Positions 4,493 through 62,272 of a stretch of DNA of 62,411 bases are shown one piece after another. Each line of letters opens with the position of its first letter. Position 1 is the stretch's first letter. Made by a program: the position numbers and the translations under genes. Origin of the DNA: Candidatus Hermodarchaeota archaeon (GTDB taxonomy: Archaea > Asgardarchaeota > Lokiarchaeia > Sigyniarchaeales > SOKP01); assembly GCA_048885705.1 (NCBI GenBank), contig JBHLLJ010000003.1:1-62411 (forward strand), read 5' to 3'. Under the pieces are notes generated by a model. That model had not been told where the DNA came from and did no database searches. It saw only the letters and a list, made by a program, of their open reading frames with translations.

Positions 4493-4500
4493 TAATTATC

Positions 4501-9521: not shown

Positions 9522-10187
9522 TTATTCAATTTCTTCTTCAGGTATTGTAGCAAACTCAAATGAATAATGAGAAGATGATCGTTCGATTGGTTGGACTTTA
9601 TTCTTATATGCAGTTCTAATTTTACTTTGAGCTTCAATCTTAGATGATACCCAATCAATATCGAATTCAGAAGGTTGATTAAATATTCGCCAGACAAATG
9701 CTTCAACAAATCTTTGCGGTCCTAATTTTTTATCTATTAAAATATAATTCTCATCGTCAATAAATTTTGTGAATAAACCAAGATTTTCACAGAAGTCTAA
9801 CTTATAATGAATATCATCCAATTTCCCGTTTATTCTCGCGATATCATTAACAAAGTTGGCTAGTTTATTTCCTAGATTAATTTGTTCTTCTTCAGTTTGA
9901 TTTTCAATTAATTTTCTTAAATAACTTCTTTTGATAATTATAAAATCTCGGTCATTTAATGATTTTATTGAGCTTTTAGGCTTTATGATGAATTTTGACA
10001 TTTCTAAGTAGTTTCTAATTAAATCGGCTTTAGAAATTCCTAGTTTTGCACGTACCTTCTCAATATTTATATTTAATTCTTCATCAATCCTAACTGTTAT
10101 AACACTTGTAGAATTATTTAACTTAGATCGCTTATCTGAAGAATTCTTTTTTAGAAACGACGATTTTTGATTGGAATTTCGACTCAT
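9522..10187 (-). CDS. ribbon-helix-helix (CopG-like) domain protein with C-terminal extension
   Basis: A basic N-terminus is followed by VITVRIDEELNINIEKVRAKLGISKADLIRNYLEM, which shows the RHH pattern of a beta strand plus two helices. Confidence 0.5.
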   Translation of the reverse strand: MSRNSNQKSSFLKKNSSDKRSKLNNSTSVITVRIDEELNINIEKVRAKLGISKADLIRNYLEMSKFIIKPKSSIKSLNDRDFIIIKRSYLRKLIENQTEEEQINLGNKLANFVNDIARINGKLDDIHYKLDFCENLGLFTKFIDDENYILIDKKLGPQRFVEAFVWRIFNQPSEFDIDWVSSKIEAQSKIRTAYKNKVQPIERSSSHYSFEFATIPEEEIE

Positions 10188-10982
10188 TTATGAAACCATA
10201 AGAAATTTTGAATTGTAATATCTGTATTAAACTAATATTATATGTAATATATGTAACTAAAAAATATAAATGATAGTATTTTACATTTTTTTCCAAAAAA
10301 AGTATTAAATCAAATATACAAAAAGAGACTGGACTCATGTCTAATTATATAATTTAGTTCAAGGATAATAAATTGATTCTCAAAGCGATTGAGAGTGTGT
10401 TAGATTGGCATTGACTAAGTTTGGTTGAGAGATTTGACCTTACTCAGTTGTTTCACGCATTAGAATATGTTTTTGCAAGATTGGGTTGTGATTTTTCATT
10501 GTATTCTCTTAAGATAAATCGTTTTTATTTAATGTGATTAATATATTGTATAAATCAATTAAAAAAGCCATAAAACACCGAAATTTATAATATTATTTCA
10601 AAATGGGTATCTAATGGGTTTTTTAATAAATTTTTTATAGATTTTTATTAAATTCGAAATCTCGGTTTCAAAGGCATTAAGATTATAATCCAATTCCAAA
10701 TAGTTTATTACTCTTATTAAATTGGTCAAAATTCATTAATCGTTTTCAAAATCATAGTCCATTTACTTATGAAATATATAGTTTCATTAGAAGATCACTT
10801 TATTAAATAAATAATTCCAAAAATAAAAATAAATTATGTAAATTTCCACATCAATTGTAACTATTATATTAATAAGCAATAGCGAATTACAAATATTACA
10901 CCAAATAAGTATATATACCGTCTAAAATATTGATTTAGTGTAATTAACCATAAGAAATTTATTAAGGGTTGGATAAAGAGTT

Positions 10983-11306
10983 ATGGAAATTTCACAAACC
11001 GGTATTTTGGAAGTTAATCTACAAAATAAATCTGAATCTATATCTGTAGAATCAGATGATCAGATTGAAAAGATTGTTAAAGCTCTGTCCTCACAAACAA
11101 GACGTAAAATTCTCCATCATATTCAGGAAGAACCTATGGATGTTTCAAATATTGCAGCTAGTTTAGGCATGACAGAAGCAAATATCTCTGCTCAAATTAA
11201 GAAGCTTGAAGAAGCTGGTTTAATAGCATGTGATTATGCGTCTGGCGATCACGGTGTTAGAAAGATAAGCCGGTTAAAGTTCAATAAACTAATTATTAAA
11301 TTTTAA
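10983..11306 (+). CDS. ArsR-family winged-helix transcriptional regulator
   Basis: LSSQTRRKILHHIQEEPMDVSNIAASLGMTEANISAQIKKLEEAGLI is the classic ArsR/SmtB HTH. Confidence 0.75.
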   Translation: MEISQTGILEVNLQNKSESISVESDDQIEKIVKALSSQTRRKILHHIQEEPMDVSNIAASLGMTEANISAQIKKLEEAGLIACDYASGDHGVRKISRLKFNKLIIKF

Positions 11307-11320
11307 TTGTTATTTTAAAA

Positions 11321-12895
11321 TTAATTTATAGATTTTATTTGTGTTTCTACTTTTTCAGTTAGAATAAGCGGATTTATTCTATTATTAGACGCATCTGGTC
11401 TTCTAATTGTTTTACTTTTTATTCCACGTTCCATTATTTCCTTCATTTCATCAGAAATTATATCCTTTGTCATTCCCATTGAATGAAGCATATCCAATCC
11501 ACTCTTAATAACTGTTTTAGCAAAACGAGGTACATTTCTCCCCATCCAATTAAATTTTCCAAAAGGATTGCAATATCTTTTTGCCACCATTTTAATCCAT
11601 CCCTTCAGATAGTATGCAGAATAAGCTTCACCAACTAATTGGTATATTTCATTATTTGTGAGCTGTTCTGTGCGCATCATTGGATGGAATAAATCATAAT
11701 ATCTATAATTATTACTTGTAATCATACTTTTTTCTGACATTTCATGATAAAAATCAGTTCCAGGAAATGCTGTTATGGGTGTAAATTGAATACAGGTCAG
11801 ATTAAGTGATTTTGCAAATTGGATATTTTCTCTAACCATTGTCTTAGTTTCACCTGGAAACCCAATAATCACTCCTCCAAATATAGAGATTCCTCGATTT
11901 TGAAGTGAAGAAACTACCTTTTTGACCATATCTGGTTTAGTGTTTCGTTTATTCATAGCATCAAGACTTTGTTGATGCATTGATTCAATTCCTAGAAATA
12001 CTTGCCTAATACCAGCTTTATGCATTAGATCAATCAACCATGGATTTCGGTATAAAGTATCAACACGAGATTGGCAGGAAAAATAGATTTTATTTGGTAC
12101 CCCCGATCGAATGATAGTATCAAGTATTTCCTTTGTCCGCTTTATTTTAATGGTAAAGTTATCTTCACAGAAAAAAATAAAATCATTTTTCCAGTCTATA
12201 TCATAAATTTCCTGCATAATCCTTTTAGTTGATTTTGTACGATATGTAACTGGACGATCATTGTTCCGCCACATCTTTATTATGCAGCAAAATTTACAAT
12301 TATGAGGACATCCTCTTGAAGTTTCAAGTTGGGCGACTCTTGCACCTAAATAAATGTACTTTTTATCATCTAATAGATCTCTTCGAGGCATTGGAAACTT
12401 ATCAAGGTTAGGTTCCAATTTTCTATCCTTATTATGTAAAACCTGTCCATCTTTATTCTTATAAGAGATACCATCAATATCTTTTAAAGAAATATGATTT
12501 TTTGCCTCATCAAGATAACTTATTAGTTCACGAAATGTATGTTCCCCCTCTCCTCGAACCGTATAATCAATCGCGGGATGTTTTGCAACGTATTCAGGAG
12601 CTAATGTTGGTTGATAACCACCTATTATAGTTGTACAACCAAGATCTTTTGCCATTTCTGCCACCTCAAATGCATGAGAGATTTGAGGTGTCATACTTGT
12701 GAGAGCTACAACATCACTTTGGTTCAATAATGAACGAAATTTGTTTTCATTATACTTATGGACTTTAAAATCAAACAATTCTGCTTCATGCTCTGGAACC
12801 ATAGCTGCAATTGATATTAAGTTTAATGGAGGTCCTTTAATAATCGCATCGAGCCCAGAGCTAAGTCGTGCTGGATTAACATATAAAATTTTCAA
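11321..12895 (-). CDS. B12-binding domain radical SAM protein
   Basis: An N-terminal cobalamin-binding-like domain (MKILYVNP...ALTSMTP) is followed by the radical SAM cluster motif SRGCPHNCKFCC (CX3CX2C). TTG start. Confidence 0.8.
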   Translation of the reverse strand: MKILYVNPARLSSGLDAIIKGPPLNLISIAAMVPEHEAELFDFKVHKYNENKFRSLLNQSDVVALTSMTPQISHAFEVAEMAKDLGCTTIIGGYQPTLAPEYVAKHPAIDYTVRGEGEHTFRELISYLDEAKNHISLKDIDGISYKNKDGQVLHNKDRKLEPNLDKFPMPRRDLLDDKKYIYLGARVAQLETSRGCPHNCKFCCIIKMWRNNDRPVTYRTKSTKRIMQEIYDIDWKNDFIFFCEDNFTIKIKRTKEILDTIIRSGVPNKIYFSCQSRVDTLYRNPWLIDLMHKAGIRQVFLGIESMHQQSLDAMNKRNTKPDMVKKVVSSLQNRGISIFGGVIIGFPGETKTMVRENIQFAKSLNLTCIQFTPITAFPGTDFYHEMSEKSMITSNNYRYYDLFHPMMRTEQLTNNEIYQLVGEAYSAYYLKGWIKMVAKRYCNPFGKFNWMGRNVPRFAKTVIKSGLDMLHSMGMTKDIISDEMKEIMERGIKSKTIRRPDASNNRINPLILTEKVETQIKSIN

Positions 12896-47182: not shown

Positions 47183-48307
47183 TTATATATTTAAGATTTT
47201 CGAATAAAAATTTTTATATTTTGATAAAATAGAATCCATTTTTCCTTTTGTTTTTAACATTTGGGAATTAAAATGAAGATCCTCTATTGATCGTAAACAA
47301 TAAGGTGAATTATCTGATTTTATAGCAGATCTAGTCCCTAAACAACCTCCTTTGCATTCATTCACCATATCGCAACTTTTACAATATCCGTGTAAACTCT
47401 CCTTTGTAAAATTTCGATTATAGTTAAAGGCTTGAGGGTTAGATAAAATTTGTTTTAGAGGTTGATTCCGTATATTTCCTTCAATAAATTTATCTGAAAG
47501 AGTTAAGCAACCTTTAATATTTCCATTGCTTTGAATACCTAGTACAGAATATCCAGCTTGACAACCAATCCATGGTGCTAATCCTAAATTCGGTATAAAT
47601 CTTGAAAAATAACCAAAACAATGAGCTCCAATTACAGGAAGTCTTCGATAGGAATATTTTTTCACATTGATTGCTATAAACATTGCTAATGCATAATATT
47701 CTTCCCTTGAAATCATTAAATCTTTAGGAAATCGTCCAATTGGGACTGCCAATTGAATTTGCCATGACATATTTCGGTCTAAAATTAAATTTTTAATTAA
47801 ATCTACTTCCTTTAAGTTCTTTTTATTAACTGCAGTTATTATTGAAACAGGAAGTTTTTCTTTTTTTAAAATTTTCATTGCATTTAGAGTTTTATCATAG
47901 GCACCTTTAATTCCTCTAAGATAATCATGTGTTTCGGGAGTTCCACCGTCTAGACTTAAAGATACACAATCTACATTTAGTTTTTTTAATTTTTGAATAT
48001 GATTAAGAACATTTAATCCATTTGTAACAATTGATAAATCCATTTTATATTTCTTAACTTCTTTCGCAATTGAATACCAATCCTCTCGAATTAAAGGTTC
48101 TCCCCCCATTAATGCTACACCTTTATACCCACATGAATGTAACTCATTAACTAATTTTAATGATTCCTCAGTAGTTAATTCGTCTGAACGAGCACTACCG
48201 GCTCTAGATCCACAATGAATACATTTGCTATTACATTTTAGAGTAATTTCCCACACAGCACAGGAGTTTTTAATTCTACGGGTTAAAAGTGTTATTAAAC
48301 TTGGCAT
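47183..48307 (-). CDS. radical SAM enzyme with C-terminal SPASM domain
   Basis: The radical SAM motif is CNSKCIHC (CX3CX2C). The SPASM pattern is complete: C...NGNIKGC (Gx4C), CKSCDMVNECKGGC (CX2CX5CX3C) and a trailing SPYC. Confidence 0.85.
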   Translation of the reverse strand: MPSLITLLTRRIKNSCAVWEITLKCNSKCIHCGSRAGSARSDELTTEESLKLVNELHSCGYKGVALMGGEPLIREDWYSIAKEVKKYKMDLSIVTNGLNVLNHIQKLKKLNVDCVSLSLDGGTPETHDYLRGIKGAYDKTLNAMKILKKEKLPVSIITAVNKKNLKEVDLIKNLILDRNMSWQIQLAVPIGRFPKDLMISREEYYALAMFIAINVKKYSYRRLPVIGAHCFGYFSRFIPNLGLAPWIGCQAGYSVLGIQSNGNIKGCLTLSDKFIEGNIRNQPLKQILSNPQAFNYNRNFTKESLHGYCKSCDMVNECKGGCLGTRSAIKSDNSPYCLRSIEDLHFNSQMLKTKGKMDSILSKYKNFYSKILNI

Positions 48308-48425
48308 TGACGTTTTAGGATTTCATTATTGAAATATAAAATTGAATAAATTTCTTTAAAAACTTTTATATTTAAAATTGGCCATTTCATAATATAATCT
48401 TGGTGAATATTACATTAACTAATTT

Positions 48426-49760
48426 TTAATTAATAGAATGATATTTATCAAGGTTTAAGATAGGATTAAAGTTCATTAATTTTTTTGTTGGCTTCTTTAC
48501 ATAACTTATTTCTGAAGTAATATCCTTCCGAATCATCTTTTTATTCTTTATTTTGCTAATTTTTAATAACCTTAACGTTCTCTTATAAATTTTTAGTGCA
48601 TTTGCTTTTAAATTTAATTTAACAAGCACTTTTGCCAAATTCCAATAATAAATGAAATCATCCCTGAATAATTGAATGGACTCTAAAAATTTCCCTTTAG
48701 CAATTTCATAATTTTGTTTATAAAATTCTTTTATTCCCTGATAAAAATATTCTTGGGATTTTTTTTGAATTAGAGTAAAAGTGAAGAAAAATAACTCATT
48801 CGATGTATTACTCTTTGAGAGCTCCTTTAGATGAGTTAATTGATTCTTCTTTTCATTTCTATAAAATAATAACTTCTCTATTATCGTTTCGCCAAATGAC
48901 TTTATCGATAAGAACGCCAACTTTTGAGTTCCAGGTATTGTAGGCAGCTTTTTTAGAGAATTAAGCAAGATATTAGGTAGGTTGTATTCTATTATATATT
49001 CTACTATTTCATTAAAGTATTTTATCTCAAAACTCGAAAGATAATTCAAATTCTCAATCGTATTAAGAAAAATTTTAGCTACTTGAGGAAATTTTAGTAG
49101 AATAGTCTTGAAAATTTCAATGATAATTACTTTATCTCTCTTTCCTTCAAACTCTTTTACCTTAACTAAAATAAAAGTAATTAATTCCTCCATTTCTTTT
49201 ATTAGAAAAGAGTTTTTAAAATCTACAATGTCTTCTAATAAAATTTTTTTTCGAATATGTGTAATGATTTGAAAGAGATTCGATTTCGAAGGTTTTTTAC
49301 ACTCAATCCTTAGTGTGGGTATTGATTCTGGATTATAATATTTCTTCTCATTTATATCAATAAATCCTATTTTTATAAGCATTTCAGTTAACAATTTTGG
49401 AGGATAACATAATTTATGTTGAAGACCTTCATGAGGGATACCAAATACCCAACCTAATATTTCTTTTTGTTGTTCATAGTCTCCGTGTAAGTATGATTGG
49501 AAAGCTTTTTCGATATCAGGAGTTTCTATTATTAGAATTCCATTATTCTGTAAAACCCTGAAAAATTCACTTAAAACGTAAAGAGCCTCGAAAAAACCTA
49601 TATGCTCAATGAATTGAATTGCTTTAACCTCTTCACAAGAATTATCAGGAAATGAGAGATTTGTAGCAGATATTTTTTGATCTGCTAATATACCCTCATA
49701 TAAATCAATATTACAATAATCTGATTCATATCTTTTTCCAGAACCAACGTTTAACTTCAT
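48426..49760 (-). CDS. class I SAM-dependent methyltransferase domain fused to a helical/TPR-like C-terminal region
   Basis: The N-terminus LNVGSGKRYESDYCNIDL...FPDNSCEEVKAIQFIEHIG...VLQNNGILIIETP is Methyltransf_11-like. The C-terminus has TPR-like pairs (YEIAKGKFLESIQL..YYWNLAKVLVKLN..ALKIYKRTL). Its start overlaps the upstream small ORF by 4 nt. Confidence 0.6.
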   Translation of the reverse strand: MKLNVGSGKRYESDYCNIDLYEGILADQKISATNLSFPDNSCEEVKAIQFIEHIGFFEALYVLSEFFRVLQNNGILIIETPDIEKAFQSYLHGDYEQQKEILGWVFGIPHEGLQHKLCYPPKLLTEMLIKIGFIDINEKKYYNPESIPTLRIECKKPSKSNLFQIITHIRKKILLEDIVDFKNSFLIKEMEELITFILVKVKEFEGKRDKVIIIEIFKTILLKFPQVAKIFLNTIENLNYLSSFEIKYFNEIVEYIIEYNLPNILLNSLKKLPTIPGTQKLAFLSIKSFGETIIEKLLFYRNEKKNQLTHLKELSKSNTSNELFFFTFTLIQKKSQEYFYQGIKEFYKQNYEIAKGKFLESIQLFRDDFIYYWNLAKVLVKLNLKANALKIYKRTLRLLKISKIKNKKMIRKDITSEISYVKKPTKKLMNFNPILNLDKYHSIN

Positions 49761-50002
49761 TTTTTATGTTTAAAATCATTTATTTTAACTGTTGAATATA
49801 AGGTTCCACTTGGATAAACAGATCTTGACCCAACAACTACAACAACAATGACGACAACCGCTATTAAAGCTAATATAAATATCAATAAAAGCTTAAATAA
49901 CAAAGATCGATTCCCTGAAAATATAAATGTTTTGTTAATTTCGCTACTCTTCAATCCTAACTCTTTTCCAATCTTATAAAATTGAGTTATTTCTTTAAAC
50001 AC
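49757..50002 (-). CDS. small single-span membrane protein, paralogue A of 46836..47162
   Basis: GTG-TTT start. Sequence: MFKEITQFYKIGKELGLKSSEIN...TM...YPSGTLYSTVKINDFKHKK. Confidence 0.5.
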   Translation of the reverse strand: MFKEITQFYKIGKELGLKSSEINKTFIFSGNRSLLFKLLLIFILALIAVVVIVVVVVGSRSVYPSGTLYSTVKINDFKHKK

Positions 50003-50170: not shown

Positions 50171-51997
50171 TTATAGAGCATATTGTTTTATTTTCTTCAT
50201 AATATTATCTTTAATTTCTTCGATCTGGTGAAAGGCTTCATTAGGTACTGTTTGATTTATTCGCAAAATTGAGTTTATTAGGTCTAACCCTAAAACATCT
50301 TCTATATTTATTTTTCGTTCTAGTAGAATTTTTCCCTCCTTATAGATTAAAAGTATAATTTTGATCATCCCTAATAATTTCTTAATATTTGTGAAATTAT
50401 CAATCTCATTGTAAGCATTTTGGATTAGAAAACCATTTTTTATCATGTTGGTAATAAAAAGTATTAATTGTTGATCTTCAGGTAAATTTTTTTGTCCTAC
50501 TAACTGAATGATATGTTTCAAATCTTGTTCTTTTGATAGAATCTCGTTCATTTGGTTTCTACACTCGGACCAGTCAAGATCAATCTCAGGCCAATCAATA
50601 TCTCTTTCAAACCACCATTCTGTTATAAATTGGGGATAATTAGAATATGAATTTAGCCAATTAATAGCAGGGTAATGTTTTAGATAAGCTAAATTAGGAT
50701 CTAATGCCCAAAAACCTTGAACTAAACGTTTTGTTGTAGAAGTTACCGGTTCACTAAAGTCACCTGCTGGAGGAGAAATAGTACTAACAATTGAAATTGA
50801 ACCTTTTCTTTCATTTCCTAGATGATCTTTTCCTATGGTATTAACAACTCCTGCTCTTTCATAAAAACTTGATAATTTAGATGGTAGATAAGCAGGATAA
50901 CCTTCTTCTGCTGGCATTTCCTCTAGTAATCCAGAAATTTCTCTTAAGGATTCTGCCCATCTTGATGTACTATCTGCGAGAACTAAAACATTATACCCCA
51001 TATCTCGAAAATATTCTGCTATGGTAACTCCTGAAAATAGACTAGCTTCTCGAGCAGACACAGGCATATTGGATGTGTTAACAATAAGTATTACTCTGTC
51101 TAATATGGGTTTACCACTCCTAGGATTTACTGTTTCTGAAATTTGTTTCATAATATTTGCAATTTCATTACCAGGTTCACCACATCCGATATACACACAA
51201 ACGTCTACATCACTCCATTTAGCTAAGGATTGTATTATAACGGTTTTACCCGTTCCAAAGCCTCCTGGGATTGCTGTAGTTCCTCCTTTAACTATTGGAA
51301 ATAATAAATCAATAATTCTTATACCTGTAATTAAGGGTTCCTGAGGATTTTCTTTTCTTTTAAAAGGGCGATTTTTAGTAATTGGCCATTTTTGCAACAT
51401 AGAAAAAGATTCTTCTTTATGCATGTTTTTGATCTTAAAAATCTCATCAATAATAGTATAATCTCCTTCATGTGCAATAAATGATATTTTTCCTGAAATA
51501 AAAGGGGGGACCATAATTTTATGATCAATTAATGCAGTTTCTTGAACAGTACCAATAATGTCTCCCTCGTTAACCTCCTCATTAACTTTTTTTAAAGGTA
51601 TGAAATGCCATTTTCTAGTCCTCGATAAACAAGGATAATTAACTCCTCTCACTAATTCTCCAGTAGAATAATGAGTAAATACTTTACCTAATGGTCTTTG
51701 TATCCCATCAAAAACCTTCCCAAGAATTCCAGGTGCTAATTCCATGGATAAAGGTTCGTTCAAACTAATAACTTTTTCATTCAATTTTAAGGATATAGTA
51801 TTTTCAAAACATTGAGCCACAACATGATTAGAAAAAATTTGAATTATTGTTCCTAGAATATTATGTTTGGGAATATTAATTAAATCATAAAGACGTACAT
51901 GATTCTCTAACCCCTTAACTTTAATAAGAGATCCTATAATTGAAGAAATATATCCATATTTTATTTCGCTTTCTATCATCTTTTTTGCACAAACCAT
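50171..51997 (-). CDS. atpA: A/V-type ATPase catalytic subunit A paralogue (second copy) with GEPGNE in place of GERGNE
   Basis: It is colinear with 56820..58664 and roughly two-thirds identical to it by eye. Walker A is PGGFGTGKTV. IGCGEPGNE has Pro encoded by CCT (plus-strand agg at 51173-51175). Confidence 0.85.
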   Translation of the reverse strand: MVCAKKMIESEIKYGYISSIIGSLIKVKGLENHVRLYDLINIPKHNILGTIIQIFSNHVVAQCFENTISLKLNEKVISLNEPLSMELAPGILGKVFDGIQRPLGKVFTHYSTGELVRGVNYPCLSRTRKWHFIPLKKVNEEVNEGDIIGTVQETALIDHKIMVPPFISGKISFIAHEGDYTIIDEIFKIKNMHKEESFSMLQKWPITKNRPFKRKENPQEPLITGIRIIDLLFPIVKGGTTAIPGGFGTGKTVIIQSLAKWSDVDVCVYIGCGEPGNEIANIMKQISETVNPRSGKPILDRVILIVNTSNMPVSAREASLFSGVTIAEYFRDMGYNVLVLADSTSRWAESLREISGLLEEMPAEEGYPAYLPSKLSSFYERAGVVNTIGKDHLGNERKGSISIVSTISPPAGDFSEPVTSTTKRLVQGFWALDPNLAYLKHYPAINWLNSYSNYPQFITEWWFERDIDWPEIDLDWSECRNQMNEILSKEQDLKHIIQLVGQKNLPEDQQLILFITNMIKNGFLIQNAYNEIDNFTNIKKLLGMIKIILLIYKEGKILLERKINIEDVLGLDLINSILRINQTVPNEAFHQIEEIKDNIMKKIKQYAL

Positions 51998-52002
51998 ATA
52001 TT

Positions 52003-52419
52003 TTATTGTAAAATAACCTCATTACAGAATGGGCACTTTTTAACAAAGTTAGGCACAGTATTTCCACAATTCTTACATTTGTTTATTATAGATTTGCGGT
52101 AGTTGAAATCCAAATTCATAGGTTTAGGAATTTTTGATTCTAGCTGATTATGTTCCTTTTGTTTCAGATTATTGTTTCTTTCTCCACTTTTTTTATTTGA
52201 AAACATCCGAGAATAAAGAGTCCTCTTTTTTGGTCTTAAAAAAGGACCAATAGTAGCTAAAAATATAAAAATCAATAAGATTGAAACAATTAAAGGATTC
52301 AAACCAAAATTAACTAAAAGATAATACAAATAAATAAAGAGAGCTAAATAAATCGTTAAACCAATTAATTTTAATGCGGTTTTTTTACTTGATTTTTGAT
52401 TTTTTTTTTCTGACACCAT
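52003..52419 (-). CDS. small membrane protein with C-terminal zinc ribbon, embedded in the ATPase operon
   Basis: It has two hydrophobic spans, then a basic linker and CKNCGNTVPNFVKKCPFC. It lies 37 nt after atpI and 5 nt before the second atpA copy. Confidence 0.5.
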   Translation of the reverse strand: MVSEKKNQKSSKKTALKLIGLTIYLALFIYLYYLLVNFGLNPLIVSILLIFIFLATIGPFLRPKKRTLYSRMFSNKKSGERNNNLKQKEHNQLESKIPKPMNLDFNYRKSIINKCKNCGNTVPNFVKKCPFCNEVILQ

Positions 52420-52456: not shown

Positions 52457-54769
52457 TCATTTAAATTCTTTAATAATATAACTCTTAGCTTTATCAATCT
52501 CTTCTTTTACAGATTTAATCTCGATTTCTTTATCAATCTCTTCAGAAATTATGTCTCTATCGAGTTCTCTGGTAAATGATATAAATGAATAATTGTCATC
52601 AAGATAGAATGGAAAATATTCAATACCAGATCCTTGAAAGAATTTGAAAAAGAATTCATAATAATGCAATCTCATAGTATTTATAAAGACAAGCAAGCCT
52701 TCTATGAGAATCACGACCATATTTCCAAATATAGCTCCGATTAGGTTTAAGATATCAAATCCAATCCCTACTCCTTGAATTAAGTTTCCCATTTGATTTA
52801 TAGCAAATAGTAAAGCAATATGAGCTAATGCCAAGGCTAACAATCTAATGTAAGATAACACATTACTCATCACTGATAATAAAGTATCAAAAGTTTCAAT
52901 TGATCCCTCACCTATTAAACCTCCAATAGATTCTTGCTGTAAATAGGATATCTTAAAGATTTTTCCAAATGGTTTTGAAAATATTAATAATAATCCTGGA
53001 ATCAAAACAAATAAAATTGGATATGGATAAGATAACCATATATTAATATTAAATCCATAACCGAATATTAAAATTGCACCTCCTAATAAAAAGAAAATCT
53101 TCATTAATGAATCGCTAAATGCTAGATATTTTCTACTTTGCTTCCAATAATTTAAGAATTGAATAAACCATCCAAGAATTATGTGAAATATCCCAATTGT
53201 TATAGCAAAATAAAAAACGGATAATATATTTCCCAACGGATTATATAATTGTATAATTACATTTATATTTAAATATGGAATTACTATTGGAATTACTATT
53301 GGATTTTCTTCAAAATTCCATATTATATTGCCGAAAATTTCTATTTCATGATGTCCAAAAAATTCACCATAAAAAAATCCTATGAGAAAAGAAGCCCATC
53401 CACAATAGAAGATAATCCAAGAAAAACTTGAAAACGTTTTTTTTCTCTTCTTAAATGCTAGAGCCCCAATAAATCCTGCAATTATTAAAACTAAACCATG
53501 CCCTATATCACCGAACATAATTCCAAATAATATTGGAAAGGTGAATGCTATAATCGGAGTAGGATCTATTTCGGAATATGTAGGTGTACCGTACATTTTT
53601 GTAATTGTTTCAAAAGGTTTTGCTAAGAAAATATTTTTCATGATTCTTGGAGTAACATCTCTTAAATCTTCAAAATGTTCATCTTTTCCATTTTTTGATT
53701 TAAATTCTTCAGATTTTGATTTGAAGCCGAGTTTTTCTTTTTTAAACTCTTTCTTTTTATAGGATTCACGAATTGGACGCTTTTTAGAAACATCAATCGA
53801 TTCAATTAAGATATTTTCTTTAAATTTATTGAATAAGTCTTCTTTGATTATATTCTTTTTTGATAAAGGCACAAAAAATTTAAGAATTGTTCTATTTGCA
53901 GAACTTACTTCAAATTGTTGAGCTGCCCAGTTATACTCTTCGATATTCTGAACAATTTCGTTAATTCCTGCGAACTTTATTAAATTATCACTAGAAATTC
54001 TGTTTTGTTCTTTATTATAGCGTGATAACAAGTCTTTTATAAATTTTATTTCAGTATCAATTCGATTGTAATTGATACCAGTATCAGTTAAATACTTTTT
54101 TAAAATTGGAACTTCTTCAGAATGAATCAATCGAATTCTTCCATTAAATTCATCCTCTTTATCTTTTGGATAAAATATATAGAATCCAGTTCGATCCTCT
54201 GAGATTTGAAATGTCTCATAATAATTAGGGAATTCTGAGAATGTAAAAAGATTGATTAAATTTTCTAAATTCTTGGAAAAGGTAGTAAAAACTCTAAATT
54301 TAAAATATTTTAAGTTGGGAACATTATTATTTGTTATTTCTATTTTTTCAAGGTATTTATAACATTTTTTTACAATTTCTATATTTTCCAACTCTATTTT
54401 TGCTTTAGATATATAACTTTTCAATTCTATAGCTCTATTCGTAAAGAATTCAATTTCTTCGAGAACATGATTAATTAATTCGTCGAGATCTTGAGCTTTA
54501 AACTCTATTCTCTCTGATTTATTTATTCTCAAATTATTTATATCTTCTTGATTAATATCGAGTCGATTAAATAACGTATCTAGGTTTTTTCTCACTAAAT
54601 TAATTTTTTCAACAATAGGTTTTTTTTCTTCTATCTCTCCTTGCAGTTCAGATTTTTCTTTTGGTTTAATATGTACCGTATTTAAATTAGAAAGTTCAAT
54701 CAAAAGCTGGTCTTTATAATTATAATTTATATCCACTTTCATCAGGCAAAATTCATCTTTTTTTCCCAT
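52457..54769 (-). CDS. atpI: A/V-type ATPase subunit I (stator a-subunit homologue)
   Basis: 770 aa. It has an N-terminal soluble coiled region and a C-terminal polytopic domain with SYIRLLALALAH (essential Arg motif). Confidence 0.8.
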   Translation of the reverse strand: MGKKDEFCLMKVDINYNYKDQLLIELSNLNTVHIKPKEKSELQGEIEEKKPIVEKINLVRKNLDTLFNRLDINQEDINNLRINKSERIEFKAQDLDELINHVLEEIEFFTNRAIELKSYISKAKIELENIEIVKKCYKYLEKIEITNNNVPNLKYFKFRVFTTFSKNLENLINLFTFSEFPNYYETFQISEDRTGFYIFYPKDKEDEFNGRIRLIHSEEVPILKKYLTDTGINYNRIDTEIKFIKDLLSRYNKEQNRISSDNLIKFAGINEIVQNIEEYNWAAQQFEVSSANRTILKFFVPLSKKNIIKEDLFNKFKENILIESIDVSKKRPIRESYKKKEFKKEKLGFKSKSEEFKSKNGKDEHFEDLRDVTPRIMKNIFLAKPFETITKMYGTPTYSEIDPTPIIAFTFPILFGIMFGDIGHGLVLIIAGFIGALAFKKRKKTFSSFSWIIFYCGWASFLIGFFYGEFFGHHEIEIFGNIIWNFEENPIVIPIVIPYLNINVIIQLYNPLGNILSVFYFAITIGIFHIILGWFIQFLNYWKQSRKYLAFSDSLMKIFFLLGGAILIFGYGFNINIWLSYPYPILFVLIPGLLLIFSKPFGKIFKISYLQQESIGGLIGEGSIETFDTLLSVMSNVLSYIRLLALALAHIALLFAINQMGNLIQGVGIGFDILNLIGAIFGNMVVILIEGLLVFINTMRLHYYEFFFKFFQGSGIEYFPFYLDDNYSFISFTRELDRDIISEEIDKEIEIKSVKEEIDKAKSYIIKEFK

Positions 54770-54789: not shown

Positions 54790-55431
54790 TTATTCTTGCT
54801 TAATAATAAGATCTTTTGTCTTTTTCAATCTAACATAATTTTCTCTTTCAATTTCCTCTAAAATGTCTTTAATTTGTTTGATATTTGATTCTAATCTAGG
54901 TATTATTACATTTTTCAAACCATTTATCCTTCTATTAACTTTTTTAAAAGATGATGCAACTTTTAGGATTAAATCTTCAATTTCAGAAAATTTTATAATC
55001 TTATTAAAGAATTCTTTTAAAACTATTAATAAATCATCAAGATAATGACTTGTATTTTCAAAAGTATAAGCGGGAAGTTTCTTTTCTTGAAACAACTCAT
55101 AGTCTATTTGAGTAATTACAAGTCCCATGTTTTTTACTGTTCGAATATTAATCCTTGGTTTATATTGGATTCTACTTAATTTGCTAATTAGAATTACTTC
55201 ATTTTTGCCCATTTCTTCATAGGTTTTAGTTAAAGTGTTAATAGATCCTTTGAATAATTTAAGAAGTTCTTTCCTTTTTGAATTATAATCCATCCATAGT
55301 TTTTTAATTTGAAGAATGAGTTGTTCACGTCTAATTTCTAAAAAATTTTGCCCTTTAATTGCAAAATCTAATCTTCTTTTTAAATTAAGTAAATTTGTTT
55401 TTGTAGGTTTAATTTCTCTAAAACTTATGAT
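54790..55431 (-). CDS. atpD: A/V-type ATPase subunit D (central stalk), apparently initiating at ATC/ATA directly after the atpB stop
   Basis: The track ORF starts at MDYNS (55293). The in-frame upstream sequence IISFREIKPTKTNLLNLKRRLDFAIKGQNFLEIRREQL is the conserved subunit-D N-terminus. Confidence 0.75.
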   Translation of the reverse strand: MISFREIKPTKTNLLNLKRRLDFAIKGQNFLEIRREQLILQIKKLWMDYNSKRKELLKLFKGSINTLTKTYEEMGKNEVILISKLSRIQYKPRINIRTVKNMGLVITQIDYELFQEKKLPAYTFENTSHYLDDLLIVLKEFFNKIIKFSEIEDLILKVASSFKKVNRRINGLKNVIIPRLESNIKQIKDILEEIERENYVRLKKTKDLIIKQE

Positions 55432-56823
55432 TTACACCTGCGGTTTATGGTATTTGTCAATATATTTAGGATGAATTCTAATTAATTGGTCTTTATTTAA
55501 ATGGGAAAGAGTCTCCCAAGCACGATTTAGGGTTTGGTCAAAATCTCTACTTTCAGTCGATTTTTGATTAAGAAATTTTTGTTCAAAATCAAAACCATAT
55601 TTTAATAGATTTCTTTGATCATTATTTAAACCATCTTCACCTACAATGGAAATTAAATCTTTAACTTCAAGATAGGATGAATATGAAGCTAATAATTGAG
55701 AACTAACATCTGCGTGATCTTCCCTTGTCTTATCCTTCCCTATAGCATCCTTCATTAATCTTGATATTGAAGCTAATACTTCAAAGGGCGGATATACATC
55801 TTTTTTTTGTAACGCACGGCTAAGAACCAATTGTCCCTCGGTAATATAGCCAGTAGTATCTGGAATGGGATGAGAAATGTCATCATTTGGCATTGTAAGA
55901 ATTGGGATCTGGGTTATTGTTCCTTTTTTTCCCTTGATTTTTCCCGTTCTTTCATAAATTGAAGCAAAATCTGAATAAATATAACCGGGATATCCCTTTC
56001 TACTAGGAATTTCTTCTTTAGCAGAACTAAGTTCTCGTAAAGCTTCGGCATAATTAGTCATATCAATTAAAATTACTAACACATGCATATCTTTCTCAAA
56101 AGCATAATATTCAGCAGTAGTTAAGGCAACTCGAGGAATTATTAATCTTTCAATAATTGGATCATCGGCAAAATTAATGAAAGAGACAATATTTTGAAGC
56201 TTTCCACTTTCTTGAAATCTACTTAAGAAATATATTGCTTCATCTTGGATTATGCCAATTCCACAGAATATGATTACAAACGGTTCTTCTGACAAAACTT
56301 TTGCTTGAGTTGCTATTTGAGCCGCTAATTTATTATGCGGTAATCCTTGTCCGCTAAAAATAGGAAGTTTTTGACCTCTAATAAGGGTAAAGAGTCCATC
56401 AATTACAGAAATACCTGTTTGTATAATGTCTACAGGATATTCTCTAGCAAAGGGATTAATAGGAGTTCCATTAATGTCTTTTCGAACATCAGTTAATATA
56501 TCGGAATCTAAAACATTCTTCGTCCTAATATCAATGGGATGTCCGAGTGAATTGAAAGTTTGTCCAAACATATCTTTTGATATGTTTATTTTAAAAGTAT
56601 CTTCTGTAAATGTGATTTCTGCATTTTCTGAGGACAGTCCTGAAGTATCCTCGAAAACTTCAACAATAATCATATCTTCAGTCATTTTAATTATCTGTCC
56701 TGTTCGAATATTATTATCCTCCGTTTTAATTCGAACTATCTCACCGTATTGAGCACTATGCTCATTTTTTAAAAATAACAGTGGCCCAATAATCTGCTGA
56801 ATCTTTTTATAAATTACACTCAT
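55432..56823 (-). CDS. atpB: A/V-type ATPase subunit B
   Basis: 463 aa. YGEIVRI, GQKLPIFSGQGLPHN and YPGYIYSDFASIYERTG are regulatory-subunit motifs. It has a 4-nt overlap with atpA. Confidence 0.9.
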   Translation of the reverse strand: MSVIYKKIQQIIGPLLFLKNEHSAQYGEIVRIKTEDNNIRTGQIIKMTEDMIIVEVFEDTSGLSSENAEITFTEDTFKINISKDMFGQTFNSLGHPIDIRTKNVLDSDILTDVRKDINGTPINPFAREYPVDIIQTGISVIDGLFTLIRGQKLPIFSGQGLPHNKLAAQIATQAKVLSEEPFVIIFCGIGIIQDEAIYFLSRFQESGKLQNIVSFINFADDPIIERLIIPRVALTTAEYYAFEKDMHVLVILIDMTNYAEALRELSSAKEEIPSRKGYPGYIYSDFASIYERTGKIKGKKGTITQIPILTMPNDDISHPIPDTTGYITEGQLVLSRALQKKDVYPPFEVLASISRLMKDAIGKDKTREDHADVSSQLLASYSSYLEVKDLISIVGEDGLNNDQRNLLKYGFDFEQKFLNQKSTESRDFDQTLNRAWETLSHLNKDQLIRIHPKYIDKYHKPQV

Positions 56824-58664
56824 CTTTTACCGTATACACTCCGTGTTAATTTTAATTCCTCTATTTGATTTAATAGTCTATCTTTTATATTTTCTAATTT
56901 ATCAAAACTTTCGTTAGGAATAGTTCGATTAATTCTTAGAATTTCACTCATTACCTTAAGATTTTTAATTTCTTCAATATAAAATCCTTCTTTAATAAGT
57001 TCCTTGCCTTCTTTATAAACTAAAAGAACAATTTTTATAGATCCTAATAATTTCTTGGTATTAGTATAATTATCAATATCATCGAAAGCGTTTTGAATGA
57101 GAAAACCATTTTTAATCAATTGAGCAATGAAGATAACTAACCTCTGGTCTTCTGGCAAGTTTTCTTCTCCAACAAGTTGAGTAATATACCTTAATTCATT
57201 ATCTTTAGAGAGAATTTCATTTACTTCTTTTCGACACTCAAGCCAATCAATATCAATTTCGACCCAATCAAAATCCCTTTCAAACCACCAATCAGAAATA
57301 TATTCTGGATAATTAGAGTAGGAATTTAGCCAATTAATTGCTGGATAATGCTTTGAATATGCTAATCCTGCATCTAATGACCATATCCCTTGAACAAAAT
57401 TTTTTGTGGTAGCTGTAACAGGTTCGCTAAAGTCTCCCGCGGGTGGAGATACAGAACCAATGATTGTAATTGATCCGATCTTCTCTTTTCTACTATTATC
57501 ACCTCCCAACAATTCAACAATACCTGCTCTTTCGTAGAAACTTGAAAGTTTTGAAGGTAAATATGCAGGGTATCCTTCCTCTGCTGGCATTTCTTCTAGC
57601 AATCCAGAGATTTCTCTAAGAGATTCTGCCCATCTTGAAGTACTATCAGCTAGAACAGCAACATCATATCCCATATCTCTATAATATTCACCTATTGTTA
57701 CTCCTGAAAAAATGCTAGCTTCACGCGCGGATATAGGCATATTTGACGTGTTTGCAATAAGAATTATGCGTTCTAGTAAAGGACGTTTAGTCTGGGGGTC
57801 GATTAATTCAGAGAATTGATCTAATACATCAGCTATTTCATTTCCTCGTTCCCCGCATCCTACAAAGACAATCACATCTGCGTTACACCATTTTGCTAAA
57901 GATTGCTGTATAACTGTCTTGCCTGTCCCAAATCCTCCTGGAACTCCAATTGTACCACCTTTAGTGATTGGGAATAGTAAATCTATTACTCGAATACCTG
58001 TGATTAGAGGTTCATTAGGCATCTTTCTCTCTTTAAATGGTCTGGCTTTATTTACAGGCCATTTTTGTAGCATTGAAAAGGATTTTTCTTTATTACCTAT
58101 TTTTAGCCTATAAATCTCATCTATAACAGTATATTCTCCTTCCTCAGCAATAAAAGATATCTTTCCAGTTATATATGGAGGTATTAATATTTTATGTTCT
58201 ATTCGAGATGTCTCTTGAACAGTTCCTATAACATCACCACCGAATACGGTCTCATTGATGCTCTTCTGTGGTTTGAAATGCCATCTATGTTGCCTTGAGA
58301 TTGGTTCAATTTCTAATCCTCGTTTTAATCCGCCTTCTTTAAAATTATCAAATGCTTTTTGCAGTGGTCTTTGGATTCCATCAAATATCTTACCTAATAA
58401 TCCTGGTCCTAATTCCATTGAGAGAGGTTCATTTAAGCTGATAACCTCATCATTTATTCTTAAATTTGTTGTATTTTCAAAACATTGAGCTACAATATAA
58501 TCAGAATAAATTTGAATGACTTCTCCTAAAAGATTATATTTTGTTACCTTAATTAGATTGTGGAGCTTAATTTGGCGTTCTAATCCTTTAATCCTTATTA
58601 TAGAACCCATTATTGCAGATATATATCCACGTTCAGGGTTTTCATTAGATTTGGATTTGATCAT
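56820..58664 (-). CDS. atpA: A/V-type ATPase catalytic subunit A
   Basis: GPGLLGKIFDGIQRPL, Walker A PGGFGTGKTV, the catalytic motif VGCGERGNE, and ADSTSRWAESLREISG. Confidence 0.9.
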   Translation of the reverse strand: MIKSKSNENPERGYISAIMGSIIRIKGLERQIKLHNLIKVTKYNLLGEVIQIYSDYIVAQCFENTTNLRINDEVISLNEPLSMELGPGLLGKIFDGIQRPLQKAFDNFKEGGLKRGLEIEPISRQHRWHFKPQKSINETVFGGDVIGTVQETSRIEHKILIPPYITGKISFIAEEGEYTVIDEIYRLKIGNKEKSFSMLQKWPVNKARPFKERKMPNEPLITGIRVIDLLFPITKGGTIGVPGGFGTGKTVIQQSLAKWCNADVIVFVGCGERGNEIADVLDQFSELIDPQTKRPLLERIILIANTSNMPISAREASIFSGVTIGEYYRDMGYDVAVLADSTSRWAESLREISGLLEEMPAEEGYPAYLPSKLSSFYERAGIVELLGGDNSRKEKIGSITIIGSVSPPAGDFSEPVTATTKNFVQGIWSLDAGLAYSKHYPAINWLNSYSNYPEYISDWWFERDFDWVEIDIDWLECRKEVNEILSKDNELRYITQLVGEENLPEDQRLVIFIAQLIKNGFLIQNAFDDIDNYTNTKKLLGSIKIVLLVYKEGKELIKEGFYIEEIKNLKVMSEILRINRTIPNESFDKLENIKDRLLNQIEELKLTRSVYGKR

Positions 58665-59387: not shown

Positions 59388-59711
59388 TTAAGATAAAACG
59401 ATATCTCCAATTGCTTCTAATATCTTATTTATAAGTTTTCCTTCTTTCTCGATATAGGGTTCAAAAACATCAGGAAGGATAAAAATAAATGGATTATTAT
59501 TATTAAGTTTAAAATTTAAAAGAAAGTTTATAATATCATCACTTAAAGACATGGCAATTACAATCATGCCAATTGAAGGTTTTTTTATTAATAGATTAAA
59601 TTCTTCTAAGAATTTCTCTTCAGAATTGATGATTGTACCTTCCAATCCTAAAAGCCCTAACAAAATTACTAAATTTTCTTCGCCCAGAATATGAATTTTT
59701 TGATCTAACAT
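59388..59711 (-). CDS. atpF: A/V-type ATPase subunit F
   Basis: 107 aa. KIHILGEENLVILLGLLGLEG is typical of the N-terminus of subunit F. Confidence 0.75.
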   Translation of the reverse strand: MLDQKIHILGEENLVILLGLLGLEGTIINSEEKFLEEFNLLIKKPSIGMIVIAMSLSDDIINFLLNFKLNNNNPFIFILPDVFEPYIEKEGKLINKILEAIGDIVLS

Positions 59712-60022
59712 TAAAAATCTAATCCTGCTTCAATTATTATTAATTTTTGTAGATTGGGAATATTTTTTTGAAAATCTTTTTCAATTTTCTTAATTGCTTT
59801 ATCTATTTTATCGCTAAATTTTTTACTTTCAGATTCTAAATCTTGAGATAGTTTTAGTAACGCTATATTTATTATTTCGTTCTTTTTATTAATAAAATTC
59901 TCAAATTCTTTTCTCTGCATTTCTCTGAATTGTTCAATATCATTTAAATTAAAATCCTTTGCATTATTTATTAAATCTTCATATACTTTTTCAATATCAT
60001 TTACCCATTTAAATATGTCCAT
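59711..60022 (-). CDS. small coiled-coil protein, probable ATPase peripheral-stalk subunit H/G
   Basis: 103 aa and all-helical. It sits between subunit C and subunit F and overlaps atpF by 1 nt (TAATG). The assignment rests on context and size only. Confidence 0.4.
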   Translation of the reverse strand: MDIFKWVNDIEKVYEDLINNAKDFNLNDIEQFREMQRKEFENFINKKNEIINIALLKLSQDLESESKKFSDKIDKAIKKIEKDFQKNIPNLQKLIIIEAGLDF

Positions 60023-60067: not shown

Positions 60068-61120
60068 TCATTTTAATAACTTATATTTTTCATATATTAT
60101 GTCTACCAATTTTGGTAAAATGAATAAGCGAATTTCCTTATCTTTTTTAATTAAAACTTCCAAAATTTTGTATATCGCTTGATAATCAATATCTACACTT
60201 TTAATTTCTAAAGACTTGAAATAATAGTCTAAATATATTTTTTCTATTGCCCAAATAAAATGCTCTTGACCAATCGAACCTGTTCTTAATTCCTTTATTG
60301 CAGTTAAATATTGCGTAAGAACTTTAATATACTCGTCTTTGTCTTTTAAATTTATCAGTTCTTTTAATTTTCGTTCATTCATAAATAAGTAATTATCCAC
60401 TAAAAGTTGTGCTAAAAGATTTTTATCAATATTATTTTTTATTCCTCGATATATAAGCCTTAAATTGTAAATCTCAGATATATATTTGATATATGGAGAA
60501 ATCATTACTTTTTCTTTTTGGGTTAGAAATTTAATCTCTTCATTTAAATTATTATAAAAAAGTTGGTCTAAAAAGGCTTCTAAAACAAATATTTCATTTG
60601 TTTTCTTAAAATAAAGAATTCCTTCTCTGATTACTTTATTATAGATAGTTGGTTTCATAAATAGCTGTATTTCTTCTAATGAGGGAATTTCAATTAACTC
60701 TTTCATGAAAGTTGTATTATCTAAGTATTTTTCAACTAACATATTTACCATCAATGATTTCTCATCAATATTCATACGCAGAATTGTTCCAAGTATTACC
60801 CGTTTAATATTCATTATTTCATATTTCATTAAATAATCTTTTAAAAAGATTCTCATGGTTCTCGGACAGATGTAAATTATTCTTCCAATTAGCTTAATAT
60901 AAACATGAAAAAGAGATTTTTCAATTTCTTCTAATGTATTGGATTTAACGGTAAGGGCGGGATAAAAAATGCTTATATATTCAAGAAATTGCTTAATATC
61001 AGTTATTTCTTCTAACTTTTGGAGTGTGTTGTCATCCATTATTAATTGTTTTAAAAAACCAATCTTGATTAAGGTAAATGCGTAGCTTGGAACTTCAATA
61101 GCACTCGTTAAATTCACCAA
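60068..61120 (-). CDS. atpC: A/V-type ATPase subunit C (eukaryotic d homologue)
   Basis: 350 aa and helical. The internally repeated motifs KYEIMNIKRVILGTILRMNIDE and EIYNLRLIYRGIKNNID match the AC39 family pattern (yD..Nik.ilR.k..g). Confidence 0.7.
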   Translation of the reverse strand: MVNLTSAIEVPSYAFTLIKIGFLKQLIMDDNTLQKLEEITDIKQFLEYISIFYPALTVKSNTLEEIEKSLFHVYIKLIGRIIYICPRTMRIFLKDYLMKYEIMNIKRVILGTILRMNIDEKSLMVNMLVEKYLDNTTFMKELIEIPSLEEIQLFMKPTIYNKVIREGILYFKKTNEIFVLEAFLDQLFYNNLNEEIKFLTQKEKVMISPYIKYISEIYNLRLIYRGIKNNIDKNLLAQLLVDNYLFMNERKLKELINLKDKDEYIKVLTQYLTAIKELRTGSIGQEHFIWAIEKIYLDYYFKSLEIKSVDIDYQAIYKILEVLIKKDKEIRLFILPKLVDIIYEKYKLLK

Positions 61121-61148: not shown

Positions 61149-61511
61149 TTATGGAGGTGCGGGTATATTAAACACTAATAATATTGCTATAATCAACCCG
61201 TAAATCGCAATAGCTTCCCCTAGAGCTACAATAACTACTACTTTACCAAAAGCCCCTTCCCTTTCTGAAATGGCTGAAATTGCTGCGGTCCCTACTGTCT
61301 TTATAACATGAGCTGCTGCTAATCCTGAGACCGATATGGCTATTGCTGCAGAAATCGCTAAAATAGGTGTTGTTGGAGAATTATAATAATCAAAATTTTC
61401 AGCTTGGGCGTGAACAAATCCTACTAGACCATTTATAGTTAAAAGGAATACTATGATTAAGATTACTTGGACTATTGCAAGATAAAAGTAAAATTTTTTT
61501 TTACCGTTCAT
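61149..61511 (-). CDS. atpK: A/V-type ATPase proteolipid subunit K (c subunit) with extra N-terminal hydrophobic segment
   Basis: The C-terminal hairpin AISVSGLAAAHVIKTVGTAAISAISEREGAFGKVVVIVALGEAIAIYGLIIAILLV carries the ion-binding Glu (GEAIAIYG). I chose the ATG at 61511; the track uses the TTG at 61535. Confidence 0.75.
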   Translation of the reverse strand: MNGKKKFYFYLAIVQVILIIVFLLTINGLVGFVHAQAENFDYYNSPTTPILAISAAIAISVSGLAAAHVIKTVGTAAISAISEREGAFGKVVVIVALGEAIAIYGLIIAILLVFNIPAPP

Positions 61512-61636
61512 ATATATTACACTTGTATTTATCAAATGAAATTATTATATTAGGGGACAATAATAAAAACTTGCGTATAAATTTTTATATTGCATATTAT
61601 AAGAAATAATGAATACTTTAATTCAAGAAAAAATAA

Positions 61637-62272
61637 TTATTGATAAAGTAATACTCTTATCTCATCAGCAATGTCATGCATTCTATCGCAGAGTTGCTCA
61701 AGTAATACAATGCTATCCCTTAAACGTAAAATTGTTCTTATGTCTAAACTCTCATTAGAATATAAATATTCGAGAAATTGCCTATATATTCTATCAATTT
61801 CATTTTCGAGTTCATGAATCTTCGTCGTATTCTGGAATACTACATCTGTGTTATCTCTCAAGTTTTTAATTGTTGATCTTAAAATATCAGCCATCTCAAT
61901 GGTTTTATTGATTAATTTTTCATATCTTCTTTCTATCTCAGGGTCAATTTTAGGAGTTAATTTAATTTTAGGTAACATATCCACAAATTCTAAGGGATAA
62001 TTAATTACATTGTCCATTTTTAAAATCAAGGAGACAAAATTACCTAAACCTGCTCCTGACTCTGAAAAGTTCTGTATTAATTGAATTTTAATGGCATCTG
62101 CATCTTCTTCAGATAATTGCATTTTATTTTTTTTCTTTTCTAATGATGATTTATTTTTTTCATAATCTTCAGCCCATCTATTATAAAAAACACCCATATC
62201 ACTGAGGACGGAATATATAATCCTTGAATGTTCTATAAGCATTGATATGATTTCTTCTTTTATTTTATTCAT
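61637..62272 (-). CDS. DUF47 (PhoU-like, TIGR00153-type) family protein
   Basis: The C-terminal IHELENEIDRIYRQFLEYLY...LRDSIVLLEQLCDRMHDIADEI follows the DUF47 pattern (lE.eaD.i.r.l...L....eiye.lE...D..ed.a..i). Confidence 0.5.
   Translation of the reverse strand: MNKIKEEIISMLIEHSRIIYSVLSDMGVFYNRWAEDYEKNKSSLEKKKNKMQLSEEDADAIKIQLIQNFSESGAGLGNFVSLILKMDNVINYPLEFVDMLPKIKLTPKIDPEIERRYEKLINKTIEMADILRSTIKNLRDNTDVVFQNTTKIHELENEIDRIYRQFLEYLYSNESLDIRTILRLRDSIVLLEQLCDRMHDIADEIRVLLYQ

Follow-up and report, generated by a model that had tools for sequence, protein, structure and literature searches.

In textbook accounts, the three catalytic sites of a rotary ATPase are identical. The canonical A subunits of Pyrococcus horikoshii (3I4L/1VDZ), Thermus thermophilus (3A5C/6QUM) and Enterococcus hirae (NtpA, 3VR2-3VR6), together with the eukaryotic V1-A subunit, form the set with which we compare an A/V-type ATPase operon located in a 62,411-nucleotide stretch of contig JBHLLJ010000003.1 from Candidatus Hermodarchaeota archaeon (the whole stretch is hereafter called the window). 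Besides a canonical A subunit (A1), this operon encodes a second full-length A subunit (A2), in which the arginine of the GER motif, adjacent to the catalytic glutamate, is replaced by proline; an A2-type paralogue is kept by many Asgard archaea. A2 resembles the canonical A subunits in its length, four domains, fold, P-loop, catalytic Glu, Walker B, adenine pocket and location in an ATPase operon. It differs from them in carrying Pro for the GER Arg (Arg262 of the E. hirae A subunit), in having Lys for an acidic residue in the rotor loop, and in being an additional copy, with a single B subunit between it and A1.

The role of the replaced residue is well described in related enzymes. In E. 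hirae, Arg262 of the A subunit touches the gamma-phosphate along with the P-loop Lys and the arginine finger of B (PMC5095293; bioRxiv 10.1101/2021.12.07.471682), which bears out the statement in the initial annotation of this locus that the Arg beside the catalytic Glu contacts the gamma-phosphate of ATP. In Escherichia coli F1, the substitutions betaR182Q and betaR182K abolish ATP synthesis and the binding of inorganic phosphate (Pi) and leave a low ATPase activity, and betaArg-182 contributes to high-affinity binding of MgATP but not of MgADP (PMC3268026). A2 is altered at the same GER position as these mutants; however, they are laboratory variants with all three sites changed, whereas A2 is natural, selected and coexists with a wild-type copy. 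The non-catalytic subunits, B in V/A-type and alpha in F-type enzymes, offer another comparison, as they too are paralogues of a catalytic subunit which lost competence but presumably still bind nucleotide and still sit in the ring, as A2 may do. Unlike A2, B and alpha have lost both the Glu and the Arg and give an arginine finger to the neighbouring site; A2 keeps the Glu and the A-specific bulge domain, has AEEG in place of SRKG, and arose by a duplication that is recent and confined to Asgard archaea, whereas B and alpha are ancient.

For Asgard archaea, a Loki metagenome-assembled genome (MAG) was reported to carry a V-type ATPase, described as eukaryotic-like, beside an A-type ATPase (PMC7997004). 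That study describes a second ATPase and no Arg-to-Pro change, whereas A2 is a paralogue inside one operon whose other subunits are single; the reported enzyme is possibly this very second A copy, recognised by way of best matches to different TCDB entries. No description of a second Asgard A subunit or of the Arg-to-Pro change was found in the literature searched in full text (Asgard energy metabolism and ATP synthase evolution). We know of no characterised precedent for a selected second 'catalytic' subunit that specifically lacks the phosphate-binding Arg.

The two A-subunit genes and the motifs of A2 which are central to the analysis are located as follows.

50171..51997, minus strand: A2, second A/V-ATPase A-subunit paralogue, 608 amino acids, terminal gene of the operon (open reading frame, Pfam, NF003220, AlphaFold model)
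56820..58664, minus strand: A1, canonical A subunit, 614 amino acids, with GCGERGNE (open reading frame, Pfam, NF003220)
51242..51265, minus strand: Walker A P-loop GGFGTGKT of A2, residues 245-252, intact (sequence)
51176..51178, minus strand: Glu274 of A2, catalytic Glu of the GER motif, still present (invariant in a 48-sequence alignment)
51173..51175, minus strand: Pro275 codon (CCT) of A2 at the GER arginine position (sequence; Pro in 100% of the A2-type proteins checked)

Both proteins show the complete A-subunit set of Pfam domains, with E-values for A2 of 6.9e-06 (ATP-synt_ab_N), 7.5e-30 (ATP-synt_ab_Xtn), 1.3e-73 (ATP-synt_ab) and 2.4e-19 (ATP-synt_VA_C). A2 scores 725.6 bits against the NCBIfam subfamily model NF003220 (cutoff 470), which A1 passes as well, and neither copy reaches the cutoff of 972 of the equivalog TIGR01043 (731.7 for A2 and 740.8 for A1). 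They align by BLASTP over 594 residues with 65% identity, 85% positives and no gaps, and share a segment, WWFERD[IF]DW.EID[LI]DW.ECR, that includes a 6-residue insertion relative to the P. horikoshii A subunit. A tblastn search of the window recovered no second copy of B, D, I, K, C, F or H, and an exact-match protein look-up of the window A2 returned no entry. The initial annotation had described two full-length A subunits on one strand, colinear and roughly two-thirds identical, with this segment in common and no other subunit duplicated; all of this holds, and the strand is the minus strand for both. It had also placed A2 after subunit I, which is right as to order, although the two genes are not adjacent and a gene for a 138-amino-acid protein (52003-52419) intervenes.

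At the GER motif A2 reads YIGCGEPGNE, with Pro275 encoded by CCT, and A1 reads GCGERGNE, with Arg273 encoded by CGA at 57846-57848. The contrast in motif and codon, as well as the intact Walker A and catalytic Glu, had been read correctly from the start, and the reads, for which a second look had been advised at this codon, leave the Pro in place. Four sediment-metagenome runs contain the A2 sequence, and their contigs span the codon with CCT or CCA only and no Arg codon, so that Pro275 is no sequencing error. The sole variant within the codon, A>T at 51173, gives CCA and keeps the Pro; further strain variants in the gene are silent or conservative, such as CTA>TTA at Leu439, which keeps the Leu. 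Among loci and reads alike, the codon and its neighbours vary synonymously (CCT/CCA) while the peptide CGEPGNE is unchanged.

The substitution separates the two kinds of protein completely. In Asgard MAG database matches, Pro is found in about 104 of about 104 A2-type proteins and Arg in about 120 of about 120 A1-type proteins; counted over all Asgard MAGs, Pro holds in every one of roughly 110 A2-type proteins. When the GER Arg is taken as the mark of a catalytic A subunit, A2 lacks it, whereas all A1-type proteins and the 19 non-Asgard outgroup sequences carry it. A contig scan, dominated by generic A subunits through the pattern EYFRDMGY, gave no Asgard locus, and its loci served only as outgroups. 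Of the 159 columns conserved at 95% or more in the 19 non-Asgard sequences, 120 are retained in both A1 and A2; besides one conservative V/I column, R275P is the only one that A1 keeps and A2 replaces. The Walker A motif GGFGTGKT and the Walker B Asp (D342) are invariant throughout A1 and A2. The wider diversity was sampled with 150 sequences, each representing a 50%-identity cluster related to A2. The canonical motif pattern is matched by 116 of them, all with Arg; the remaining 34, either fragments or divergent A-like proteins whose motifs are degenerate in other ways, include none with Pro. Within this sample of 150 sequences, GEP marks out the Asgard A2 clade.

Degenerate A-like proteins with a changed GER motif do occur elsewhere, among them metagenomic proteins, one Oscillospiraceae protein and a V-ATPase A paralogue of Paramecium tetraurelia. 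They resemble A2 in this respect, but their identity to it in the motif region is only 28-50%, none has Pro, and in most of them it is the Glu that has gone and not the Arg. The motifs seen are GAR, GGR, GLS, GIC, GKR and AES (P0276, P0289, P0291, P0307/P0375, P0311, P0313, P0343, P0345, P0350 and P0373), and A-like paralogues of this catalytically degenerate kind are perhaps commoner than has been recognised.

For A1 and A2 alike, the best database matches belong to Asgard (Promethearchaeota) MAGs that bear the labels Loki-, Thor-, Hod-, Odin- and Hermodarchaeota, and they fall into two classes, an A2 type of 597-609 residues with GEP and an A1 type mostly of 612-617 residues with GER. We compared the gene neighbourhoods of eleven other Asgard loci (L081-L091), all of which share the gene order of the upstream part of the operon with the window; one of them, L085, stops short of the A2 position. 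A2 closes a K-C-H-F-E-A1-B-D-I-(zinc-ribbon)-A2 cluster in the window and in nine of the ten other loci that are informative (10 of 11 in all), lying after I and the zinc-ribbon gene and before a convergent gene for a tRNA-intron endonuclease. These are the window, L081-L084, L086 and L088-L091, and they include the closed 2.27-Mb genome CP070805.1. The deeper-lineage A2 proteins (L088-L091) are 62-65% identical to the window A2 and every one has Pro. L087 is the one informative locus without A2; its operon is there, as is its zinc-ribbon gene.

Neighbour-joining places A1 and A2 in one Asgard-specific clade with 100% bootstrap support, apart from the other archaeal, bacterial and eukaryotic A subunits. 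The A2 proteins of all but one lineage group together (91%), the branching within A2 mirrors that within A1, and A1-A1 and A2-A2 distances are correlated across 28 genomes (r = 0.81). From this mirrored branching and the correlated distances, the duplication is judged to be old within this Asgard ATPase lineage and A2 to have been inherited vertically with the operon. The proposal that A2 is an in-lineage duplicate therefore stands as far as the Asgard-specific clade is concerned, with the qualification that the duplication is old and widespread and not private to this genome.

In one lineage, L086, with its pair of A genes at 3333-5159 and 10001-11800, A1 and A2 are sisters in the tree, and yet each retains its own signature residues. 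The two are 79% identical, with a synonymous distance (dS) of 0.55 and uniformly high third-position identity, whereas dS is saturated elsewhere. Either gene conversion followed by selection on the signature residues or an independent duplication with convergence could account for this, and either history singles out the signature positions as the functionally selected difference. A kinship of A2 with eukaryotic V1-A was also considered. A2 outscores A1 by a few bits against eukaryotic V1-A chains; the idea was rejected, however, as eukaryotic sequences are not closer to A2 by distance and fall outside the A1/A2 clade, and the mammalian A subunit has none of the derived A2 signature states. 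Separately, a few Asgard-labelled A subunits (P0224/P0378 and P0226) have HCGERGNE or HCGERGIE, are 59% and 47% identical to A2 and branch beneath the A1/A2 clade, which indicates more than one A-subunit lineage in Asgard archaea.

Nei-Gojobori ratios of nonsynonymous to synonymous substitution (dN/dS) between orthologues are 0.11-0.16 for A2, 0.07-0.15 for A1 and 0.04-0.11 for B. Across 28 genomes, A2 averages 73% identity and A1 78%, and A2 evolves roughly 1.3-1.5 times faster. Its conservation profile by domain nevertheless parallels that of A1, the nucleotide-binding domain being the most conserved part (56% invariant columns against 69% in A1, in the 28 genomes), and neither frameshifts nor stops in A2 were seen in any locus examined. 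The checks suggested at the outset, on orthologues and on selection, thus gave numerous intact copies with Pro in all of them, under purifying selection. A2 is, by these sequence measures, a maintained gene.

Beyond Pro275, we looked for signature residues of A2, defined as positions that separate the A2 from the A1 clades at all depths.

51155..51157, minus strand: Asn281 in the 'arm' helix; Asp in A1 and most outgroups (D281N)
51038..51040, minus strand: Leu320 in AREAS-L; Ile in A1 (I320L), 100% conserved in A2
50681..50683, minus strand: Leu439; Ser in A1, Arg in most outgroups and mammals (S439L)
50489..50491, minus strand: Lys503 in the loop LVGQKNLPEDQ; Glu in A1, Asp in outgroups

D281N lies in the helix that begins at the GER motif, and Leu439 sits three residues ahead of the adenine-stacking aromatic Tyr442. 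Position 503 is a charge reversal, E503K/R across A2 proteins (LVG-x-x-NLPEDQ), in a loop which we take to be the counterpart of the DELSEED rotor-contact loop of F1-beta. None of the signature changes brings a positive charge near the phosphate site, the gains being Leu, Leu, Asn and Thr, with the Lys in the distant rotor loop. The C-terminus of A2 is 6-10 residues shorter than that of A1.

The AlphaFold model of A2 (predicted template modelling score 0.78) matches solved A subunits over its full length with a template modelling (TM) score of about 0.8. The top 50 Foldseek matches include A chains from T. thermophilus, E. hirae, yeast, human and other mammals (ranks 3, 4, 5, 7, 10 and others), and the A-subunit matches have TM scores of 0.77-0.86 over about 600 columns. 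Pro275 falls at the junction of a strand (266-274) and a helix (276-288) in the model, which on this basis is a structurally permissive place for Pro; in the E. hirae A subunit, the 'arm' helix (261-275) begins at the equivalent place (PMC5095293). Where the B subunit of the window carries its arginine-finger motif PSRKGYPGY, A2 has MPAEEGYPAY, and it also has the bulge domain. A2 as a stand-in for B was rejected on this ground, since AEEG occupies the place of the arginine-finger SRKG and A2 cannot replace B.

Since the essential phosphate-binding Arg is always Pro, A2 looks deliberately disabled or regulatory, and a catalytically impaired or specialised subunit is the most reasonable inference from sequence and from analogy with known enzymes. 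The contacts of Arg262 in E. hirae and the losses in the E. coli betaR182 mutants lead us to predict that A2 binds nucleotide but is blind to Pi. The betaR182 mutants also lead us to predict that A2 would have lost hydrolysis or synthesis of ATP in an A3B3DF complex. The account which we favour, and which we advance tentatively as a serious possibility, is that A2 occupies an A position of the A3B3 head, binding nucleotide without stabilising Pi or the transition state, and acts there as a built-in regulator. A2 would be a functional paralogue, inherited vertically and predicted to share the transcript of the ATPase operon as its final gene, that retains the A-subunit fold, P-loop, catalytic Glu, Walker B Asp, AREAS Arg and adenine pocket and would take the A position beside the single B subunit. 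Its site may bind nucleotide, MgADP especially, and would neither bind Pi nor stabilise the transition state. In a mixed head, such a site would be idle during ion-driven synthesis and would stall ATP-driven reverse rotation; fewer ATP would be made per turn, giving a higher ion/ATP ratio. The block on reverse rotation and the raised ratio could help organisms living near the thermodynamic limit. A head with A2 only would be an inactive cap. The A position in the head appears the most economical assignment, because all domains are constrained, because the operon to which A2 belongs has one gene each for B, D, F, E and H, and because A2 cannot replace B. A brake or a gear role for A2 is our hypothesis. 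In its specific asymmetric form, with one A2 of three, 2 ATP per turn, a higher ion/ATP ratio and no reversal owing to nucleotide trapped in A2, the proposal is rather unlikely; if true, it would describe a natural one-way, low-gear ATP synthase and a living replay of the way in which non-catalytic subunits arose from catalytic ones.

Several points weigh against placing A2 in the head as a regulator. The putative assembly with B and D is read solely from operon position and conservation, and mixed heads, A2-only heads and free A2 are all possible. None of the RNA runs searched with A2 and with A1 plus B contains the organism, and A2 appears dispensable in at least one lineage, as L087 lacks it. 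Moreover, F1 enzymes with alanine at catalytic residues still rotate, although 1,000 to 10,000 times more slowly (PMC5380711), so that catalysis by A2 is perhaps not strictly zero but 'very slow'. This robustness of F1 catalysis also speaks for a reading in which A2 is still a catalytic isoenzyme, whose site compensates for the lost Arg or handles another substrate or other kinetics, with Pro tuning activity; the P-loop Lys, catalytic Glu, AREAS Arg and the arginine-finger region of B are all intact. We nevertheless consider such an isoenzyme improbable, given that no signature substitution adds a positive charge close to the phosphate site, that in E. coli neither ATP synthesis nor Pi binding survives even the conservative betaR182K change (PMC3268026), and that Pro is absent from all 150 representatives of A-subunit diversity.

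It is unlikely, though readily conceivable, that A2 never mixes with A1 and instead builds its own A2(3)B(3) heads in an essentially non-catalytic state on the same stalks and membrane sector, for example as a cap parking or sealing that sector or as a storage form under particular conditions. Conservation and operon position agree with such heads as well as with mixed ones, and the charge-reversed rotor loop (E503K) and shorter C-terminus could favour self-sorting; however, a fully inactive enzyme made at equal dosage from the same transcript seems costly, and nothing in the sequence indicates exclusion of A1. A role for A2 outside the rotary ATPase, as a free nucleotide-binding sensor, a head assembly factor or a partner of the zinc-ribbon protein, is distinctly unlikely. 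The gene is terminal, follows the membrane subunits instead of standing beside B and D, and is always preceded by that for the conserved small zinc-ribbon membrane protein, but the latter occurs without A2 in L087, and all domains of A2, the N-terminal barrel and the bulge that make neighbour and stalk contacts in known complexes among them, are conserved almost as strongly as in A1, which would be needless in a free protein. Finally, we give hardly any credence to a decaying duplicate or to a sequencing or assembly artefact. The somewhat faster evolution of A2 noted above speaks for decay; against it stand more than 100 intact orthologues with Pro, the low dN/dS, the Pro codon in four independent runs and open frames at every locus examined, and both pseudogene and sequencing error were rejected on the combined evidence of dN/dS, intact reading frames and read support.

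The remaining genes of the operon lie on the minus strand with A1 and A2, in the transcription order PhoU_div-K/c-C/AC39-H/G-like-F-E-A1-B-D-I-(zinc-ribbon membrane protein)-A2.

61637..62272, minus strand: PhoU_div
61149..61535, minus strand: K/c
60068..61120, minus strand: C/AC39
59711..60022, minus strand: H/G-like protein, 103 amino acids
59388..59711, minus strand: F
58645 to about 59379, minus strand: E
55432..56823, minus strand: B subunit, single copy, arginine-finger region PSRKGYPGY (Pfam, tblastn)
54790..55428, minus strand: D subunit, central stalk (Pfam, homology to relatives)
52457..54769, minus strand: I subunit, membrane stator, V_ATPase_I (Pfam)
52003..52419, minus strand: 138-amino-acid membrane protein (two transmembrane helices predicted) ending in a zinc ribbon at the C-terminus

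The stop of the 138-amino-acid zinc-ribbon gene lies 5 nucleotides ahead of the A2 start. Its product carries a CxxC...CxxC zinc ribbon and matches no Pfam or NCBIfam family, and the gene is kept after I in every Asgard locus examined that reaches this position, the A2-less L087 among them. The protein is possibly an uncharacterised accessory subunit of the ATPase in Asgard archaea; because it is present in L087, the idea that it is obligately partnered with A2 was rejected.

Two of the genes show unusual starts. For D, the first canonical start codon gives 54790-55293, while homology extends to an ATA at 55426-55428; the closest relative (L082) reads ATG AGT TTT where the window reads ATA AGT TTT, and starting at 55293 would lose about 45 conserved N-terminal residues. 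This points to either a non-canonical start codon or a genuine N-terminal truncation. For E, the frame homologous over the full length is open from 59379, just past F, and no ATG, GTG or TTG precedes the TTG at 59121; in related loci, E is called with 158-243 residues, and once with 83, and on account of these varied lengths a non-canonical E start seems common among them. PhoU_div (DUF47) is found at or near the head of the cluster in the window, L081-L088 and L090 and was not seen in L089 and L091, and in L085 and L090 another gene lies between it and K. On the other side of A2, a minus-strand block at 47183-50002 encodes an 81-residue membrane protein, a 444-residue protein that weakly matches methyltransferases, and a radical SAM/SPASM enzyme. 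Only in the window and in L082, its closest relative, does this block separate A2 from the tRNA-intron endonuclease; it may be a peptide-modification cassette. By Pfam search, the 444-residue frame is no B subunit.

Databases label both A1 and A2 as 'V-type ATP synthase subunit A'. As annotation pipelines name both genes alike, metabolic reconstructions silently count the probably non-catalytic A2 as catalytic. If A2 does enter the head, it would represent a new way to regulate or re-gear ATP synthesis, and would offer a young and tractable model of how catalytic and non-catalytic subunits parted in ancient times.

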